A DNA stretch of 64,000 bases from an uncultured Spirochaetota bacterium (lineage in GTDB: Bacteria; Spirochaetota; UBA4802; UBA5550), in assembly GCA_963827275.1 (NCBI GenBank), contig CAWHAA010000005.1, positions 576,001 to 640,000 on the forward strand, read 5' to 3'. This document shows, in pieces, positions 4,282-30,846 of this stretch. Under the pieces are notes generated by a model. The model did no database searches. It was not told the origin of the DNA and saw nothing but the letters and a program-made list of their open reading frames with translations. The position numbers were made by a program, and so were the translations under genes. Numbering within the stretch: position 1 is the stretch's first letter; the number at the start of each line of letters is the position of its first letter.

Positions 4282-4508
4282 GGGGTCAGAGTAACCGGCC
4301 TGCCGATAACTATCGGTCATGTGCCTGCTCTGACCCCGGGGACTACCGATAACTATCAGTCGTATGCTTACTCTGACACCGGGGATTACCGATAACTATC
4401 GGGACCCCTCCTCAGGTGTCAGCGCAGCGATATGCCGATAATCGTTAAAAGTTGCTCTGACACCCGAATTTCACCGATAACTATCGGTCAGCCGGTTACT
4501 CTGACCCC
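4282..4508. repeat. Composite REP/MITE-like element: 18-bp perfect terminal inverted repeats, 6 motif-A and 5 motif-B copies
   Basis: GGGGTCAGAGTAACCGGC at 4282-4299 and its reverse complement at 4491-4508; CCGATAACTATCGG-type copies at 4303, 4346, 4389, 4435 (degenerate), 4474. Confidence 0.9.
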
Positions 4509-24156: not shown

Positions 24157-24774
24157 CTAGTAGAAATAATTATGGATCGCATGCAAATGTCGGCAGTTCA
24201 CAACAATCTTTTCAACTTCTCGCTTGAATGACTCATCGTATTGTATAGCAATCTCAGGATTATCATGGGTTCGCATAAGATGACGAAGCAGATCCGGTTC
24301 ATGTATTAAAATACTGTAATAATACCAATCTCTTGAAAAAATTGCAGCATAAAGGATTTCATCATCATTAAGAATTTCCCGCGCCCCGCATGAAAACACC
24401 TTCCCCCGATAACTCAGAAAACATTCATGTCGAAAAACGTGGTGTGGGCCTTCCCGATTGAGGAGGCATCCAACAGAACGTCCTTCGTCAACAAAACCCA
24501 CAAAAGGGCATTGAGGACAATCATCGAACAGCGCCGGCAGTGTCAGAGTAAACCCAGCATCATCTTGAACATAATAGGAACCGGTCATATTACTTCGGGA
24601 TGCCACCATCTTTCTAATAAAGTATTTCTCATTATACTCATTTATGACACCAGAACGACGACCAAAAAGTGCTTTAATTTCTTTTAAACTGGCCTTATAA
24701 TTATGGCTGCCACAACACAGTGCACATGATGCGCCATAACCCGGCCTGCAGATGTTAATAATATTATCGTCCAT
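24157..24774 (-). CDS. Cys-rich hypothetical protein (possible metal/Fe-S binding)
   Basis: SCALCCG, CPQCPFVG, GCLL, FSC, DWYYY; AT-rich. Confidence 0.65.
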   Translation of the reverse strand: MDDNIINICRPGYGASCALCCGSHNYKASLKEIKALFGRRSGVINEYNEKYFIRKMVASRSNMTGSYYVQDDAGFTLTLPALFDDCPQCPFVGFVDEGRSVGCLLNREGPHHVFRHECFLSYRGKVFSCGAREILNDDEILYAAIFSRDWYYYSILIHEPDLLRHLMRTHDNPEIAIQYDESFKREVEKIVVNCRHLHAIHNYFY

Positions 24775-25011: not shown

Positions 25012-25611
25012 TCATAAAAATAGACTCTCTGGAAAAATTCGCTTCCTGTACATATTCTCCAAATCCAGCAAAACCCTTTTCCGTTCAGCAAAGATTTTTC
25101 CCAATTGAAGAAAACATTCATGCAAGGTAATTTTAACTGGAGAAATGTAATTATCACTCAAGTAACACAGGATACTACTATAAGGATAATTTCGAGGATC
25201 AACAACTATTTTACTTTTAACCGGATTATAGGCCAGATAAAAGAAAACCGCGAAAAAAGTTGCGACAGGATCATTTGCTAACTCAATTATATTATCTCTA
25301 AATCGTTCATTCCAGAACGGACCAATTCTGTTCATTATACGATTATATCGCCTGGCAAATTGCGCCTTGATATATTGCATAATCCTTGAAATAGTCTCCC
25401 CTTCATTGATTGTCCTGATAAGAAAATGAAAATGGTTATCCATTAACGTATAAAAAATAAGCTCAAATTTATATTTTTCAAGAGCCTTCCTTAATACTTG
25501 TAGCATTAAATCTTTCATTTCATCAGAGCTCATGAGATGTTTCCCCTCTATGCATCGAGACATTGTATGATAGGTTAATTCTGGCATACAAATTCTATTT
25601 TTCCGTGGCAT
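25012..25611 (-). mobile_element. REP-associated tyrosine transposase (RAYT / TnpA-REP, Y1 HUH)
   Basis: MPRKNR N-terminus, YHTMSRC, LMDNHFHFL (HUH), GPFWNERF, YLAYNPV (catalytic Tyr), YPYSS; SD AAGGAG. Confidence 0.9.
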
Positions 25612-25697
25612 GGCTTTGCCTTCTCCTTTACATAAATGGTGAATTCTTATAATCAATGTGTATACGAACGCTAACATTCTTATGTATAAGAAAAATT

Positions 25698-25937
25698 CGG
25701 GTCAGAGTAAAAAAAACAATCTTTGATCCATCTGTCAACATATGGGCCTGAGTAAATTATTCTAAGATAGTCACAATTATTACAAAATCATGCTAAATGT
25801 TAAGCACATGTAAAATAATCCCGAAATCAATCTCTATTAAATAAACCATATTGACAGTCGATTGGGTGATTACTATTTTAAATGATATTAATCATTTATA
25901 GAGTTTAATATCATTTAAAATATTGGGGTCAGAGTAA
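25698..25937 (+). repeat. Two motif-A copies in the RAYT/gatA divergent intergenic region
   Basis: CGGGTCAGAGTAA 25698-25710; GGGGTCAGAGTAA 25925-25937. Confidence 0.85.
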
Positions 25938-25952
25938 GATATTCATTGAGTT

Positions 25953-28844
25953 ATGATTGAATTAAACAGAAAAACATCCAAAGAAATCGTACAATTGGTC
26001 AACAAGCGAGCCATATCGTGTGAGGAATTGATCCGCCATTATCTATATATGATGGAAACGTATGATCCGCTCCTCGGTTGCTTTACATCGACACGCGACA
26101 CAGAGCAACTACTGATCCAGGCTCGTGAAAGCGACACCCGCAGAAGCCGGGGCGAGGAAAAAAGCCCGATTGATGGCATCCCCATAGCCATTAAGGACAA
26201 TATTCACTCGATGGGCATCCCTACTACCTGCGGATCGGCAATCCTTGAAGGATATCTTCCTCCTTACGATGCCACCACTGTGGCCAGATTGAAAGAACGA
26301 GGGGCTATAGTTATCGGTAAGACAAATCTTGACGAATTTGCCATGGGTTCAACATGCGAAAACTCCGCCATAAAAATAACCCGCAACCCCTGGGACACTG
26401 GCCGTGTACCGGGAGGCTCTTCAGGCGGATCAGCTGCCGCGGTATCGGCCGGTTTTGTGCCGTTTGCTCTGGGCAGTGACACCGGCGGCTCAATCCGCCA
26501 GCCAGCGGCATTTTGCGGCGTAACTGGCCTCAAGCCGACCTACGGTCTGGTCTCACGCTACGGGCTCGTCTCCTACGCATCGTCCCTGGACCAGATCGGG
26601 CCGTTGGCCCGCGACGCGTACGGCTGCGCCCTTCTCCTGAACGCAATAAGCGGGTTTGATCCCCATGACTCGACGTCGCTGCCAGGCCCCGCGGTCGACC
26701 ATTCAATGCACCTGTCAGCAGGCATTCAGGGGCTGCGGCTTGCGGTCATCCCGGAGCTTTTTACGGAAGGGATATCACCCCTGGTGCGCGAGCAATTCGA
26801 AGATTCGATACAACTGCTGGGCGGACTCGGGGCGATGATCGGGGAGGCCTCGATGCCGTCCCTTCATTATGCTATAGCAACATATTATTTTATCGCATGC
26901 GCCGAGGCAGCATCAAACCTTTCACGCTACGACGGCGTGAAATACGGATACCGGAGCGGGAGCCAGCGCGATTATCATGAGATGCTGTTCACCTCCCGCT
27001 CGCGCGGCCTTGGGCGCGAGGTTAAAAAGAGGATACTTCTCGGGAACTTCGTGCTTTCATCAGGCTATTACGACGAGTACTACTGTAAGGCGCTGAAGGT
27101 GCGTGCCTTTATACGGGAAGATATCATGAGGATTCTTGAGGCCTTCGATGCCATCGCCATTCCATCAACCCCTGACATCGCGTTTCCACTCGGCGAGAGC
27201 CAGAGCGACCCGATGAAAATTTACCTCTCGGACGTGACCACGGTTATCGCGAACCTTGCCGGGCTCCCCGCTCTTTCCGTGCCCGCGGGCATGGTTCATG
27301 GGATGCCGGTCGGGCTCCAGCTGATCGGGAGGCCCCTTGATGACGGCAGGCTCCTTGGTATCGCTGCGGCGTACGAGCGTGAGCGCACGACCTCGTTTTT
27401 TCCCCCGCTTGATGTGATGTCCGATACCCTGACCCGTACGGGCATGCTGGATACGCAAAAAAATAACGGCATTCCCGCGGAAAAGGCCGTATCGTCCTAC
27501 AGCCCGGAATTTATCGGCGGGATATCCCGTTCCTACATGGCCCGCTCAACAATGGCGCCGGTGCGCGTCCTCTGCAGCATGCTTGCACAGAGCATCAACC
27601 AGCGAGTCACCATCGCCGGATGGATCCACCGGAAAAAGAGCCTCGGCGGCATAGAATTCTACGAGCTCCGCGATAGGACCGGGTTTACCCAGCTCGTGCT
27701 CGAAGGCGGCAGGCTCGATGAAAGGATAAACCTGGAAACTGTAGTGGAAGTAACCGGGACCGCAACAAAGGAAGGCCGCAGTCCCTTTGATAACATCGAA
27801 ATAAAGGTGGAGTCAATTACTATCCTTGGGAGCGCTGATTCAAACCTGCCGTTGTCGCTAAACCGGCCCCTTACGAATGTGACCCTCCCGACAATACTGG
27901 ACAACCGCGTCATCTCGGTCCGGAACCCGGACATCCTCCGGGCCTTTCGCTTGCAGTCTGAGATCGTTCGGCTGTTTTCGGAATATCTCCGCGCGAATGA
28001 TTTTACCGAGATGAAGACCCCGAAGATCATAGCGTCCGGCACCGAGGGAGGCACCAACATCTTCAAGGTAAAATATTTCGGCCGCACCGCCTACCTCGCG
28101 CAGTCCCCGCAGTTCTACAAGCAGATAATGGTGGGAAGCGGCCTCGAGCGCGTATTTGAAGTCGGGCCGGTGTTCCGTGCCGAGCACCACGACACCGTGC
28201 GCCACCTGAACGAATACATCAGCATGGACTTCGAGATGGGGTTCATCACCGACGAGCAGGACATCATCGATATGCAGGAGGGGCTGCTCCGGCACATATT
28301 CGGCGGGCTGGCAGAGCTCCGGCCCGCATTCCTCGAGGCAGATGAGCCGCTGGCGTTCCCGGAGCGCATTCCCCGCGTCCATTACCTCGAGGCGCTCGAT
28401 ATCATCCGTTCCGCCGGCGGCCGCCTCGAGGAAGGCGATATCTCCCCCGAAGGGGAAAAAATACTGTGCAGCCATTTTGAAAGAACAGGCGGATCAGAGT
28501 TCGTATACGTGATCGGCTACCCGGTAAAAAAACGGCCAATGTACACCATGCCTGACGAGCGCGTGCCGGGTTACACGCGAAGCTTCGACCTGCTCTACCG
28601 CGGCATCGAGATAACTACCGGGGGCCAGAGGATCCATGACTACGACATGCTCAAAGACAATATGAAGATGCTCGGTTTCAATCCCGCGGAATTCCGCGAC
28701 TACCTGGAGACCTTCAGGTTCGGCATGCCGCCCCATGGCGGGCTCGGTATGGGGCTCGAACGCCTGACAATGAAGATTCTGAAACTGAAAAATATCCGTG
28801 AAGCTAGCCTATTCCCGAGGGATATCAACAGGATAACGCCGTAA
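25953..28844 (+). CDS. gatA: GatA amidase fused to archaeal-type non-discriminating aspartyl-tRNA synthetase (gatA::aspS)
   Basis: IKDNI, GGSSGGS, GSDTGGSIRQPA, SRYDG; then AGWIH, LRDRTG, LAQSPQFYKQ, FRAE, GGQRIH, GMPPHGGLGMGLERL in one 963-aa frame. Confidence 0.88.
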   Translation: MIELNRKTSKEIVQLVNKRAISCEELIRHYLYMMETYDPLLGCFTSTRDTEQLLIQARESDTRRSRGEEKSPIDGIPIAIKDNIHSMGIPTTCGSAILEGYLPPYDATTVARLKERGAIVIGKTNLDEFAMGSTCENSAIKITRNPWDTGRVPGGSSGGSAAAVSAGFVPFALGSDTGGSIRQPAAFCGVTGLKPTYGLVSRYGLVSYASSLDQIGPLARDAYGCALLLNAISGFDPHDSTSLPGPAVDHSMHLSAGIQGLRLAVIPELFTEGISPLVREQFEDSIQLLGGLGAMIGEASMPSLHYAIATYYFIACAEAASNLSRYDGVKYGYRSGSQRDYHEMLFTSRSRGLGREVKKRILLGNFVLSSGYYDEYYCKALKVRAFIREDIMRILEAFDAIAIPSTPDIAFPLGESQSDPMKIYLSDVTTVIANLAGLPALSVPAGMVHGMPVGLQLIGRPLDDGRLLGIAAAYERERTTSFFPPLDVMSDTLTRTGMLDTQKNNGIPAEKAVSSYSPEFIGGISRSYMARSTMAPVRVLCSMLAQSINQRVTIAGWIHRKKSLGGIEFYELRDRTGFTQLVLEGGRLDERINLETVVEVTGTATKEGRSPFDNIEIKVESITILGSADSNLPLSLNRPLTNVTLPTILDNRVISVRNPDILRAFRLQSEIVRLFSEYLRANDFTEMKTPKIIASGTEGGTNIFKVKYFGRTAYLAQSPQFYKQIMVGSGLERVFEVGPVFRAEHHDTVRHLNEYISMDFEMGFITDEQDIIDMQEGLLRHIFGGLAELRPAFLEADEPLAFPERIPRVHYLEALDIIRSAGGRLEEGDISPEGEKILCSHFERTGGSEFVYVIGYPVKKRPMYTMPDERVPGYTRSFDLLYRGIEITTGGQRIHDYDMLKDNMKMLGFNPAEFRDYLETFRFGMPPHGGLGMGLERLTMKILKLKNIREASLFPRDINRITP

Positions 28845-28856
28845 AATCAGATTGTT

Positions 28857-29074
28857 GGGGTCAGAGTAAAATCTATTTTTGGGTAATGGTGTCAGAGTAA
28901 CCGTGCTACCGATAACTATCGGTCATGTATGAAGGGGTCAGAGTAAAAGATAAAAAGATAAAGGGGTCAGAGTAAAAGATAATGATTAGAAAACAAATAA
29001 AGTCTACAAACATAAAAAATATGTCAGATATTTCCCGCTCCTGATATCTGGAGCCGGATAAGGGGTCAGAGTAA
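28857..29074 (+). repeat. Cluster of five motif-A and one motif-B copies between the gat genes
   Basis: A at 28857, 28888, 28934, 28963, 29062; B at 28909-28922. Confidence 0.92.
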
Positions 29075-29079
29075 CTACC

Positions 29080-30846
29080 ATGACTGATAAAGCCCGGATC
29101 AACATCGACAACCTGATAGAGCTCGGCTCATTTGAAGTGACCGTGGCAGAAAAGGAGCAGCTCCGGGGCGAGCTTGCCGAATTCCTGGAATACGCCCGGG
29201 TGATAAACGGCGCGCCCCAGCACCTGCCCCCGGCCAGCCATGCTGTTGATAAAGAACAACTGCTGCGAGACGACACGTCCGAGCCCCGGGGCGACCGTGC
29301 GCCGCTCCTCGGCAACGCGCCCGCCCTCCAGGGAGAAAGCTACCTGGTGCCGCCCCTCGCGGGAAGCGCCGCCACCGGTGAGGAAAAAAGCGTACCGTCT
29401 TCAGGCGCGGGTTCCGGAGTGTACGAGGTCGTGATCGGGCTCGAGGTGCACGCCCAGCTCAATACAAAGAGCAAGCTCTTCTGCTCCTGTCCGGTCGGGT
29501 TCGGGAGCGCGCCGAACGCCAATACCTGCCCCGTCTGTTCGGGCCAGCCCGGCGCCCTCCCGGTGCTGAACCGCGAGGCGGTCACCATGGCGATCATGGC
29601 GGGCCTGTCAATGGGATGCACCATCAACCGGCGATCACTCTTCGCGCGGAAAAACTATTTCTATCCTGACCTGCCCAAGGGCTACCAGATATCCCAGTTC
29701 GAGGAGCCTATCTGCAGCGGCGGCACCGTGGCTATCGAGCTTGATGGAATGATAAAAAATGTCCGCCTCAACAGGATCCACATGGAGGAGGACGCGGGCA
29801 AGCTCGTCCACGTGGGCGCACCGGGCATCTGGGGCTCCAAGGCGAGCGCGGTCGATTACAACCGGTCAAGCGTGCCCCTGGTCGAGATCGTCACCGAGCC
29901 TGATATCGGGTCGCCCGCCGAAGCGCGCGAGTACATGGTGATGCTCCGCTCCATCCTGGTGTCCCTCGGCATCTGTGACGGCAACATGGAAGAGGGAAAT
30001 CTCCGGTGCGACGCGAACGTGTCCCTGCGCGAGCGCGGCGACGAGGCCCTCGGCGTGAAGGTGGAGATCAAGAACATGAACTCCCTCAAGGCGATCGAGC
30101 GCGCCCTGTCCTACGAGATCGCGCGGCTCGGGACGATGAAAAAGAACAATATCCCCATACGCCAGGAGACCCGGCTCTGGGACGAAAGCGGCCAGAAGAC
30201 CTATTCGATGCGGAGCAAGGAGGAGTCGCACGACTACCGCTACTTCCCCGACCCCGACCTCCTGCCGCTCATGGTTGACGACGACTGGATCGAGCGCGCG
30301 CGGAAAGCGCTGCCGCCCATGCCGCTTGAGCGGAAGGCCCGCTACCAGCGCGAATTTTCCTTCAGCGAGCCTGAAGCGCGCCTCTTCATGATCAACCCCG
30401 CGTACGCGGACTTCTTTGAAAAGGCGCTCGGGTCCTATGACAACCCGCGCAACCTGGCGAACTGGCTCTTTTCCGAGCTGCTCTCCCACGAGGGCGACTT
30501 CGACCGCCTGCATATCACACCCGGGGATTTCGCCGCCTTTTTAAAAAGGGTCGACAGCGGCGAGATCAGCGGCAGGCTCGGCAAGGACATACTGCGCAAG
30601 GCCTTTGCCGGCAAAAAGGGCCTGGTCGAAATAATTGACGAAGAAGGCCTGAAACAGGTCACGGACCGCGGCGCCATAGAAGCCGCGGTGGACGAGGTGA
30701 TACGGGCCAATCCAGGCCAGGCCGCCGAATACCGAAGCGGCAAGACCAGGGTGCTCGGCTGGTTCGTGGGAGAGGTCATGAAGGCCACGAAGGGCAAGGC
30801 CAGCCCGGGGGTGGTGAATGAGGTGCTGAAGGAAAAATTGAAGTAA
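29080..30846 (+). CDS. gatB: GatC::GatB fusion, Asp/Glu-tRNA amidotransferase
   Basis: N-terminal about 93 aa GatC-like (LRDD...LLGNAP...YLVPP), G/S linker, then VIGLEVHAQL, KNYFYPDLPKGYQISQ, EEDAGK, DYRYFPDPDL. Confidence 0.9.
   Translation: MTDKARINIDNLIELGSFEVTVAEKEQLRGELAEFLEYARVINGAPQHLPPASHAVDKEQLLRDDTSEPRGDRAPLLGNAPALQGESYLVPPLAGSAATGEEKSVPSSGAGSGVYEVVIGLEVHAQLNTKSKLFCSCPVGFGSAPNANTCPVCSGQPGALPVLNREAVTMAIMAGLSMGCTINRRSLFARKNYFYPDLPKGYQISQFEEPICSGGTVAIELDGMIKNVRLNRIHMEEDAGKLVHVGAPGIWGSKASAVDYNRSSVPLVEIVTEPDIGSPAEAREYMVMLRSILVSLGICDGNMEEGNLRCDANVSLRERGDEALGVKVEIKNMNSLKAIERALSYEIARLGTMKKNNIPIRQETRLWDESGQKTYSMRSKEESHDYRYFPDPDLLPLMVDDDWIERARKALPPMPLERKARYQREFSFSEPEARLFMINPAYADFFEKALGSYDNPRNLANWLFSELLSHEGDFDRLHITPGDFAAFLKRVDSGEISGRLGKDILRKAFAGKKGLVEIIDEEGLKQVTDRGAIEAAVDEVIRANPGQAAEYRSGKTRVLGWFVGEVMKATKGKASPGVVNEVLKEKLK

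Follow-up and report, generated by a model that had tools for sequence, protein, structure and literature searches.

Two adjacent genes of an uncultured Spirochaetota bacterium, each a fusion, together encode the components of an asparagine transamidosome. They lie in a 64,000-nucleotide stretch of contig CAWHAA010000005.1 (assembly GCA_963827275.1, positions 576,001 to 640,000; genome G000 below), which we call the window. The first gene joins the amidotransferase subunit GatA to an archaeal-type aspartyl-tRNA synthetase (AspRS); because the next gene is a fusion of GatC to GatB, four transamidosome proteins are carried on two chains. The fused GatA, AspRS, GatC and GatB are best read as a two-chain variant of the known Asn-transamidosome. 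We think it probable that the two genes form one amidotransferase-synthetase, in which aspartate is loaded on tRNA(Asn) and then amidated with glutamine, likely for asparagine only. An initial annotation, made from the sequence of the window alone, had called the first gene "half of a covalent transamidosome." That the fusion is genuine and belongs to an Asn-transamidosome has held, but the other half proves to be next to it. Features are listed in Table 1.

Table 1. Features of the fusion locus and a related gene. Positions are those of the window unless a contig of G000 is named; aa, amino acids.
Feature	Position	Strand	Basis or remark
Conserved box, two similar hexamers 11 bp apart	25798..25816	+	Seen at 11 of the 33 fusion loci compared, each in the same genus
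Sigma-70-like promoter match, TTGACA-17-TATTTT	25851..25879	+	10/12 consensus; not evidence of function
GatA::AspRS fusion open reading frame	25953-28844	+	Single open frame, 963 aa
GatA glutaminase domain, aa 1-486	25953..27410	+	TIGR00132 and structure overlay; triad Lys81/Ser156/Ser180
Linker, aa 487-537	27411..27563	+	Variable low-confidence stretch, then conserved helix; structure prediction, alignment
Conserved linker motif Y516-x4-I521-x3-S525-x2-Y528	27498..27545	+	Alignment of 66 members
Archaeal-type AspRS, aa 538-963	27564..28844	+	PRK05159, TIGR00458, PDB match; His559 and Pro611 in anticodon-binding domain
GatC part of GatC::GatB, aa 1-94 of 588	29080..29361	+	PF02686 and TIGR00135 scores
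Linker of ~20 aa and GatB (aa 115-588), with GatB/YqeY C-terminal domain	29362..30846	+	TIGR00133, PF02934, PF02637; one frame
AsnA-like gene	C6:217044-218276	-	411-aa class II synthetase-like protein without anticodon domain

Profile matches bear out the initial description of a GatA, a linker of about 50 residues and an archaeal-type AspRS in one 963-residue frame. The GatA model TIGR00132 matches residues 14-477 with 565 bits (cut-off, 481), and the modeled domain superimposes on the solved chains 2df4, 3h0l, 4wj3 and 3kfu with Z scores of 55-59 and root-mean-square deviations of 1.4-1.6 A. Because this overlay reaches residue 486-487 of the fusion model, we set the start of the linker at 487. 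Residues 541-963 match PRK05159 (530 bits; cut-off, 353) and TIGR00458 (418 bits; cut-off, 368), and the bacterial AspRS model TIGR00459 scores 191 bits on the fusion protein, under its cut-off of 374. By an archaeal-type AspRS we mean an OB domain and a class IIb core of ~430 residues with no bacterial GAD insertion. Here the PRK05159 match is one stretch (541-963) without that insertion and is colinear with 1n9w; the best PDB match is AspRS2 of Thermus thermophilus (1n9w/3kfu, E 6.3e-103). Lys81, Ser156 and Ser180, which we take to be the Lys/cis-Ser/Ser catalytic triad of GatA, are intact in 65 of 66 full-length members of the fusion family. The class II motif residues of the AspRS part are invariant among members.

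The GatC::GatB gene (29080-30846) directly follows and is likewise a single frame. Its GatB stretch is matched by TIGR00133 (533 bits; cut-off, 315), PF02934 and PF02637. The GatC stretch passes the cut-off of PF02686 (25.9 bits; cut-off, 23) but not that of TIGR00135 (24 bits; cut-off, 47.1). Four GatB residues that we assume to be metal ligands (E122, H124, E236 and E269) are invariant across 21 members. The initial annotation had advised looking for a second gatCAB; the GatB of this fusion is the sole GatB match in G000. The same is true of all 19 near carriers, by which we mean G000 and the 18 of its 40 relatives that bear GatA::AspRS. GatC::GatB runs end-to-end in 17 of these, is divided between two contigs in another, and in the last has its GatC stretch within a run of Ns. 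The two fusion genes are also adjacent at most distant loci, and are unlinked in several distant genomes (L218, L220, L229).

To judge from a predicted complex, GatC::GatB binds the GatA domain in the manner of an ordinary GatCAB. A model of GatC::GatB (residues 1-420) with GatA and its linker (residues 1-545) scored 0.93, against 0.09 for the best control; at least 87% of contacts are shared between runs, and the pLDDT (the per-residue confidence of the prediction) of the partner is at least 84. The mark used for such models is reached by 116 of 157 solved pairs and by 2 of 215 mismatched pairs. GatC is ordinarily a belt of some 95 residues around the interface of GatA and GatB; in the model, GatC residues 6-94 contact and wrap GatA. 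This is a textbook pair, and the model, including these contacts, may pass by likeness. The C-terminus of GatC has been placed on GatB (PMC7541841), so the natural GatC::GatB order fits.

The initial annotation had singled out a His in GWIH and a Pro in RSPF. Both are present, as His559 and Pro611; they align with the His and Pro of T. thermophilus AspRS2 (1n9w), and with Trp26 and Lys85 of 3nel. We take this pair (H28 and P77 of Deinococcus AspRS2) to be the determinants of a non-discriminating AspRS, although our literature search gave no passage stating so. His is found in 58 of 66 members, Pro in 58 of 66, both in 50 and neither in none. We infer from these sequences that the fused AspRS is non-discriminating and would charge tRNA(Asn). 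In five distant carriers, the archaeal-type AspRSs that stand free carry Gln in place of this His. Bacterial AspRSs of carriers and non-carriers offer no contrast, because none of the 31 compared has His there. Those of the same genus as G000 (L164, L166, L169-L172, L175, L178, L181) read GWVESNRNLGG or similar at this site, and those of other genera GWVxxKRDLGG; the genus-specific motif may reflect a changed tRNA specificity. The tRNA(Asn) of G000 (C6:307876-307949) has U1-A72, a pair described as an amidation determinant (PMC9976931).

That the fused machine likely serves asparagine only is suggested by the distribution of glutaminyl-tRNA synthetase (GlnRS) among 37 carriers, namely the 19 near carriers and 18 more from a sample of the phylum, whose kin are not independent. 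Twenty-seven have GlnRS and only the fused GatB; in nine, GlnRS is unmatched and a second, free GatB is present; no genome has both GlnRS and a second free GatB. The remaining carrier (G011, 92% complete) likewise gave no GlnRS match, but its only GatB is the fused one. Because the two distributions are complementary, we read the fused enzyme as not doing the glutamine job. Nor is the fused AspRS needed for tRNA(Asp), since a separate AspRS is retained in 18 of 19 near carriers; distant carriers have free archaeal-type copies. It has been argued that a GatCAB with two roles forms no more than loose complexes, stable ones being those that serve a single activity (PMC3241645), and a PSTK-SelB fusion has been proposed as a guard against cross-talk (PMC8762117, PMC9499178).

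Class II AspRSs are homodimers, and the particle would accordingly have the composition (GatA-AspRS)2(GatC-GatB)2. The AspRS dimer would bear two tethered GatA domains, each binding one GatC::GatB chain, so that the particle might pre-assemble without tRNA. tRNA(Asn) would be aspartylated by AspRS, after which its acceptor end would move to GatB, where ammonia released from glutamine by GatA would complete Asn-tRNA, by chemistry that is established for GatCAB. The tether could hold Asp-tRNA(Asn) against escape and could bar GatCAB from Glu-tRNA(Gln). The result would be a glutamine-dependent route to Asn-tRNA beside asparaginyl-tRNA synthetase (AsnRS) and, in most carriers, beside a putative ammonia-dependent route through the AsnA-like gene; it would likely come into play under a shortage of free asparagine or ammonia. 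A stronger version, which we offer tentatively and hold to be less likely than its negation, is a permanently assembled machine in which the linker helix takes over from tRNA as the scaffold and restricts the complex to asparagine, and which acts as a nitrogen-source switch against the divergently placed AsnA-like enzyme.

Several findings weigh against a dedicated and necessary asparagine machine. His or Pro is substituted in 16 of the 66 members. The "non-discriminating" label of TIGR00458 proves nothing, because three of four free housekeeping AspRSs of the same genomes also exceed its cut-off. The single-chain model leaves the GatA and AspRS domains unfixed relative to each other (predicted template-modeling score, pTM, 0.56). 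The nine carriers without GlnRS come from two families, and six of the nine are less than 90% complete; each of these families also holds a GlnRS-bearing carrier with one GatB. One member, P0071 (G121 C30:131424-134195, locus L223), is a fusion that has lost the GatA triad. In its genome, which is 87% complete, GatC::GatB is retained along with a free GatB, and neither AsnRS nor GlnRS gave a match; this fusion could work with free ammonia or rely on another GatA.

The remaining objections concern other routes to asparagine and Asn-tRNA. AsnRS is over its cut-off in 33 of 37 carriers, partial in two and unmatched in two; asnS, whose absence the initial annotation had proposed to check, is present in G000. 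Genes of the AsnB class were matched in 11 of the 19 near carriers, compared with 4 of 22 non-carriers and one of five distant carriers, and that of G000, being over the TIGR01536 cut-off, is a candidate asparagine synthetase. The idea that AsnB is a mere polysaccharide enzyme is not supported, as two of seven loci adjoin glutamate synthase genes, one is in a sugar cluster and the rest are unclear. The AsnA-like gene occurs in 18 of 41 genomes (15 of the 19 near carriers, and 3 of the 22 non-carriers, of which two have no GatB match) and in 3 of 10 further carriers. Because AsnRS, AsnA-like and AsnB-class genes coexist with the fusion, the route is redundant, and the reason proposed above for keeping it is correspondingly conditional.

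The AsnA-like protein best matches archaeal asparagine synthetase A (1nnh, E 4.5e-13; 3p8t, E 1.1e-11). It is under the cut-offs of PRK06462 in NCBIfam, is missed by PF03590, and is ~120 residues longer than the solved archaeal enzyme. Its gene, also present at L224:10569-11801 and L231:3634-4965, is directly upstream of asnS in G000 and usually so elsewhere, and it is divergent from the fusion gene in G028, G034, G039, G306 and G372. In G081, the fusion gene is itself immediately preceded by asnS. At 3 of 14 loci the fusion pair has genes for glutamate synthase, glutamine synthetase III or GlnE at its flanks. An early reading of the fusion as the sole asparagine route failed because the E. 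coli-type AsnA model, which matched in 0 of 41 and 0 of 5 genomes searched by profile, is blind to the archaeal-type AsnA-like gene, found through gene neighborhoods. With that gene and the AsnB-class gene present, the sole-route reading is rejected for G000. In G005, G081 and G092, none of three asparagine synthetase queries matched. Because asparagine synthetase A is described as ammonia-dependent (PMC9437257), the two routes may be split by nitrogen source.

A simpler explanation is that the fusions only fix co-expression and a 1:1 stoichiometry, the tether adding neither channeling nor specificity. The linker (51 residues in this protein) is partly variable, with pLDDT below 50 at residues 492-514, and this, the low pTM and the separation of the two genes at L218, L220 and L229 are what such an arrangement would look like. 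However, linker length is held to 42-56 residues across 66 aligned members, a helix is predicted at 518-527, and the helix motif is strongly conserved over identities of 45-83% (I521 in 62 of 66 members, S525 in 64 and Y528 in 64). Moreover, co-expression alone does not explain a second free GatB exactly where GlnRS is missing. We therefore consider this explanation unlikely, though it is the best of the alternatives to a functional tether. The confident GatA/GatCB interface contacts of the complex model include no docking partner for the linker motif. A likeness of the helix to the tRNA-binding N-terminal motif of eukaryotic class IIb synthetases was considered and dropped, as its conserved residues are Tyr, Ile, Ser and Tyr, not lysines.

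Alternatively, the single frame might yield separate GatA and AspRS, either from an internal start or by cleavage of the linker, which is predicted to be disordered and contains Met489, Met498, Met529 and Met534. However, 31 of 66 members have no Met between 487 and 544 (a count of Met only, GTG and TTG starts not being checked), no Shine-Dalgarno-like purine run is evident ahead of the linker ATGs, and no full-length match listed has an interdomain stop. We regard separate products as highly improbable.

We give still less credence to a dual Asp/Glu amidotransferase, or to a supply of Asp- or Asn-tRNA for a use outside translation. Both tRNA(Gln) genes of G000 also begin with U1-A72, and G011 lacks a GlnRS match while having only the fused GatB. 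Yet G011 is 92% complete, a second free GatB is present in nine of the ten carriers without a GlnRS match, and the 38 neighbor proteins scanned from 14 loci include no recurrent transferase gene.

The initial annotation had also cautioned that the fusion could be an artefact, an extra base in a homopolymer having merged separate gatA and aspS. The sequence features behind this concern are all present: T6 at 27396-27401, C5 at 27402-27406, and a TGA at 27415-27417 that overlaps an in-frame ATG at 27417 (Met489). The caution was fair, because aspS elsewhere in the same assembly is frameshifted. This bacterial gene (C6:295433-297184, minus strand) is broken near its start here and intact in relatives, likely by a sequencing indel; among the tRNA calls of the G000 assembly there is none for tRNA(Asp). 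However, the fusion is full-length and free of stops in 15 of 16 genomes of the same genus and in three of another family, and the junction DNA differs between the fused relatives (14 loci compared). Bridging of the homopolymer was looked at in four sequencing runs. Contigs from X1, X2 and X3, which belong to three studies, span 26113-27635, 26125-27800 and 27018-27650 with no gaps there; X12 gave no piece across the site. Given the 18 fused relatives and the gap-free contigs of three independent studies, we reject the artefact.

The search for the fused architecture in independent genomes that the initial annotation had recommended was thus productive among the 40 relatives, and it was equally so in a phylum sample of 401 Spirochaetota genomes. 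There, 35 genomes from 5 families and 15 genera matched with E 1e-190 or better, two of the matches being clipped by contig ends yet spanning the junction. In the cultured Ca. Uabimicrobium amorphum, whose genome is complete, both fusion genes are present, together with AsnRS and GlnRS and with no other GatB. Among the database proteins listed, 73 of 120 have all three Pfam domains; these 120 proteins (529-1686 residues) and the best 150 matches of a further search include no four-way fusion and no second, more distant fusion family. Two candidate relatives were rejected: P0195 is a plant-like duplicated AspRS, and P0162 is a GatA with a low-complexity tail. None of 29 matching plasmid records covers 80% of the query; phages were not searched. 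At L273:4962-7663, at a contig end, the fusion gene is frameshifted inside its AspRS part, by error or decay. Database names for the fusion protein are mostly GatA and once "Multifunctional fusion protein," so carrier genomes are miscounted in surveys of synthetase content.

In quick or FastTree trees with midpoint roots, each with a subset of carriers and with one truncated free AspRS omitted, the fused proteins form one group each: GatA (quick tree, 22 rows; SH-aLRT support, 99), AspRS (FastTree, 15 rows; support, 100) and GatB (FastTree, 12 rows; support, 100). The fused groups are separated from free GatA and GatB of the same order, and likewise from operon copies of Firmicutes. This pattern fits a single origin of the fusions, with no donor, direction or order of events claimed. 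Genera without the fusion in the near sample have free GatA and GatB instead. Our guess is that gatA moved ahead of aspS in an aspS-gatC-gatA-gatB operon; the neighborhoods examined contain no unfused gatA-aspS-gatC-gatB locus.

Upstream of the fusion gene, the promoter pattern of Table 1 recurs in 10 of 16 loci of the same genus. The conserved box lies 53-54 bp ahead of the -35 element, at a fixed distance from the promoter match; it is a possible regulator site and may belong to the divergent gene. No sigma-54 site was found upstream of the fusion in 33 loci, and the 64-kb window gave no Rfam match at all, whether to a T-box or to another RNA leader. The divergent gene (24157-24774, minus strand) encodes a Cys-rich protein of 205 residues with no Pfam match and two paralogues in the genome, and its place is conserved in the genus. 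Between them, at 25012-25677 (minus strand), is an IS200-like (Y1_Tnp) gene, and a short repeat of 13 bases surrounds it. Copies of this repeat lie at 4285, 24037, 24114, 24542, 24792, 25701, 25928, 28860-29065, 39828 and 55781, five of them between the two fusion genes, and 78 exact copies occur genome-wide, clustered on 5 of 11 contigs. The arrangement looks like REP/RAYT.

Covalent links in this pathway are not unprecedented, because a family of AspRS-GatC fusions is on record by name. NF009460/PRK12820 of NCBIfam (723 positions; [quoted passage not shown]) likewise ties AspRS to a GatCAB subunit. However, it joins AspRS to GatC and implies no GatC::GatB partner, whereas here the GatC match is on the GatB gene and AspRS is joined to GatA. 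We presume its AspRS to be bacterial-type and to come from Desulfovibrio relatives; our literature search found no paper on it. The same search, which was of full texts, included PMC7373986 and PMC8406222 and had supplementary domain tables and most subscription papers outside its scope, gave no description of a GatA-AspRS or GatC-GatB fusion. Two artificial counterparts show that such ties can be functional: an engineered GluRS-GatC link of Thermotoga maritima (3AL0; PMC3241645), and a laboratory GatC-GatA fusion of Mycobacterium smegmatis, a selected mutant with raised mistranslation (PMC7541841). Firmicute aspS2-gatC-gatA-gatB operons (L084-L086, L096, L104) hold the same four genes in one operon, but these are unfused, are arranged differently, and branch separately in each of the three trees.

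The closest known system is the Asn-transamidosome of T. thermophilus and Deinococcus radiodurans (3KFU, 1N9W), which has the same components: an archaeal-type non-discriminating AspRS2, GatCAB and tRNA(Asn). These organisms likewise keep the route beside AsnRS, GlnRS and a second AspRS (PMC4206432). There, however, the proteins are individual chains that come together on tRNA "without any protein-protein interactions" (PMC3241645), in contrast to the two fused chains here. Also, their route is the sole source of asparagine (PMC2330236), whereas G000 has AsnA-like and AsnB-class genes. Of the Thermus-type traits, G000 thus shares U1-A72, and neither the four separate chains assembled on tRNA nor the exclusive asparagine route. 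AsnA-bearing genomes were said in 2008 not to use GatCAB for Asn-tRNA (PMC2330236, section 9), and the co-occurrence of the fusion with AsnRS and the AsnA-like gene bears on the open question of why indirect routes persist. The GlnRS pattern suggests fusion as one way to a single-purpose bacterial GatCAB. Known transamidosomes are noncovalent, frequently also transient, and for one structure a link had to be engineered (PMC3241645); with a natural two-chain form in a cultured organism whose genome is complete, channeling, fidelity and specificity become directly testable.

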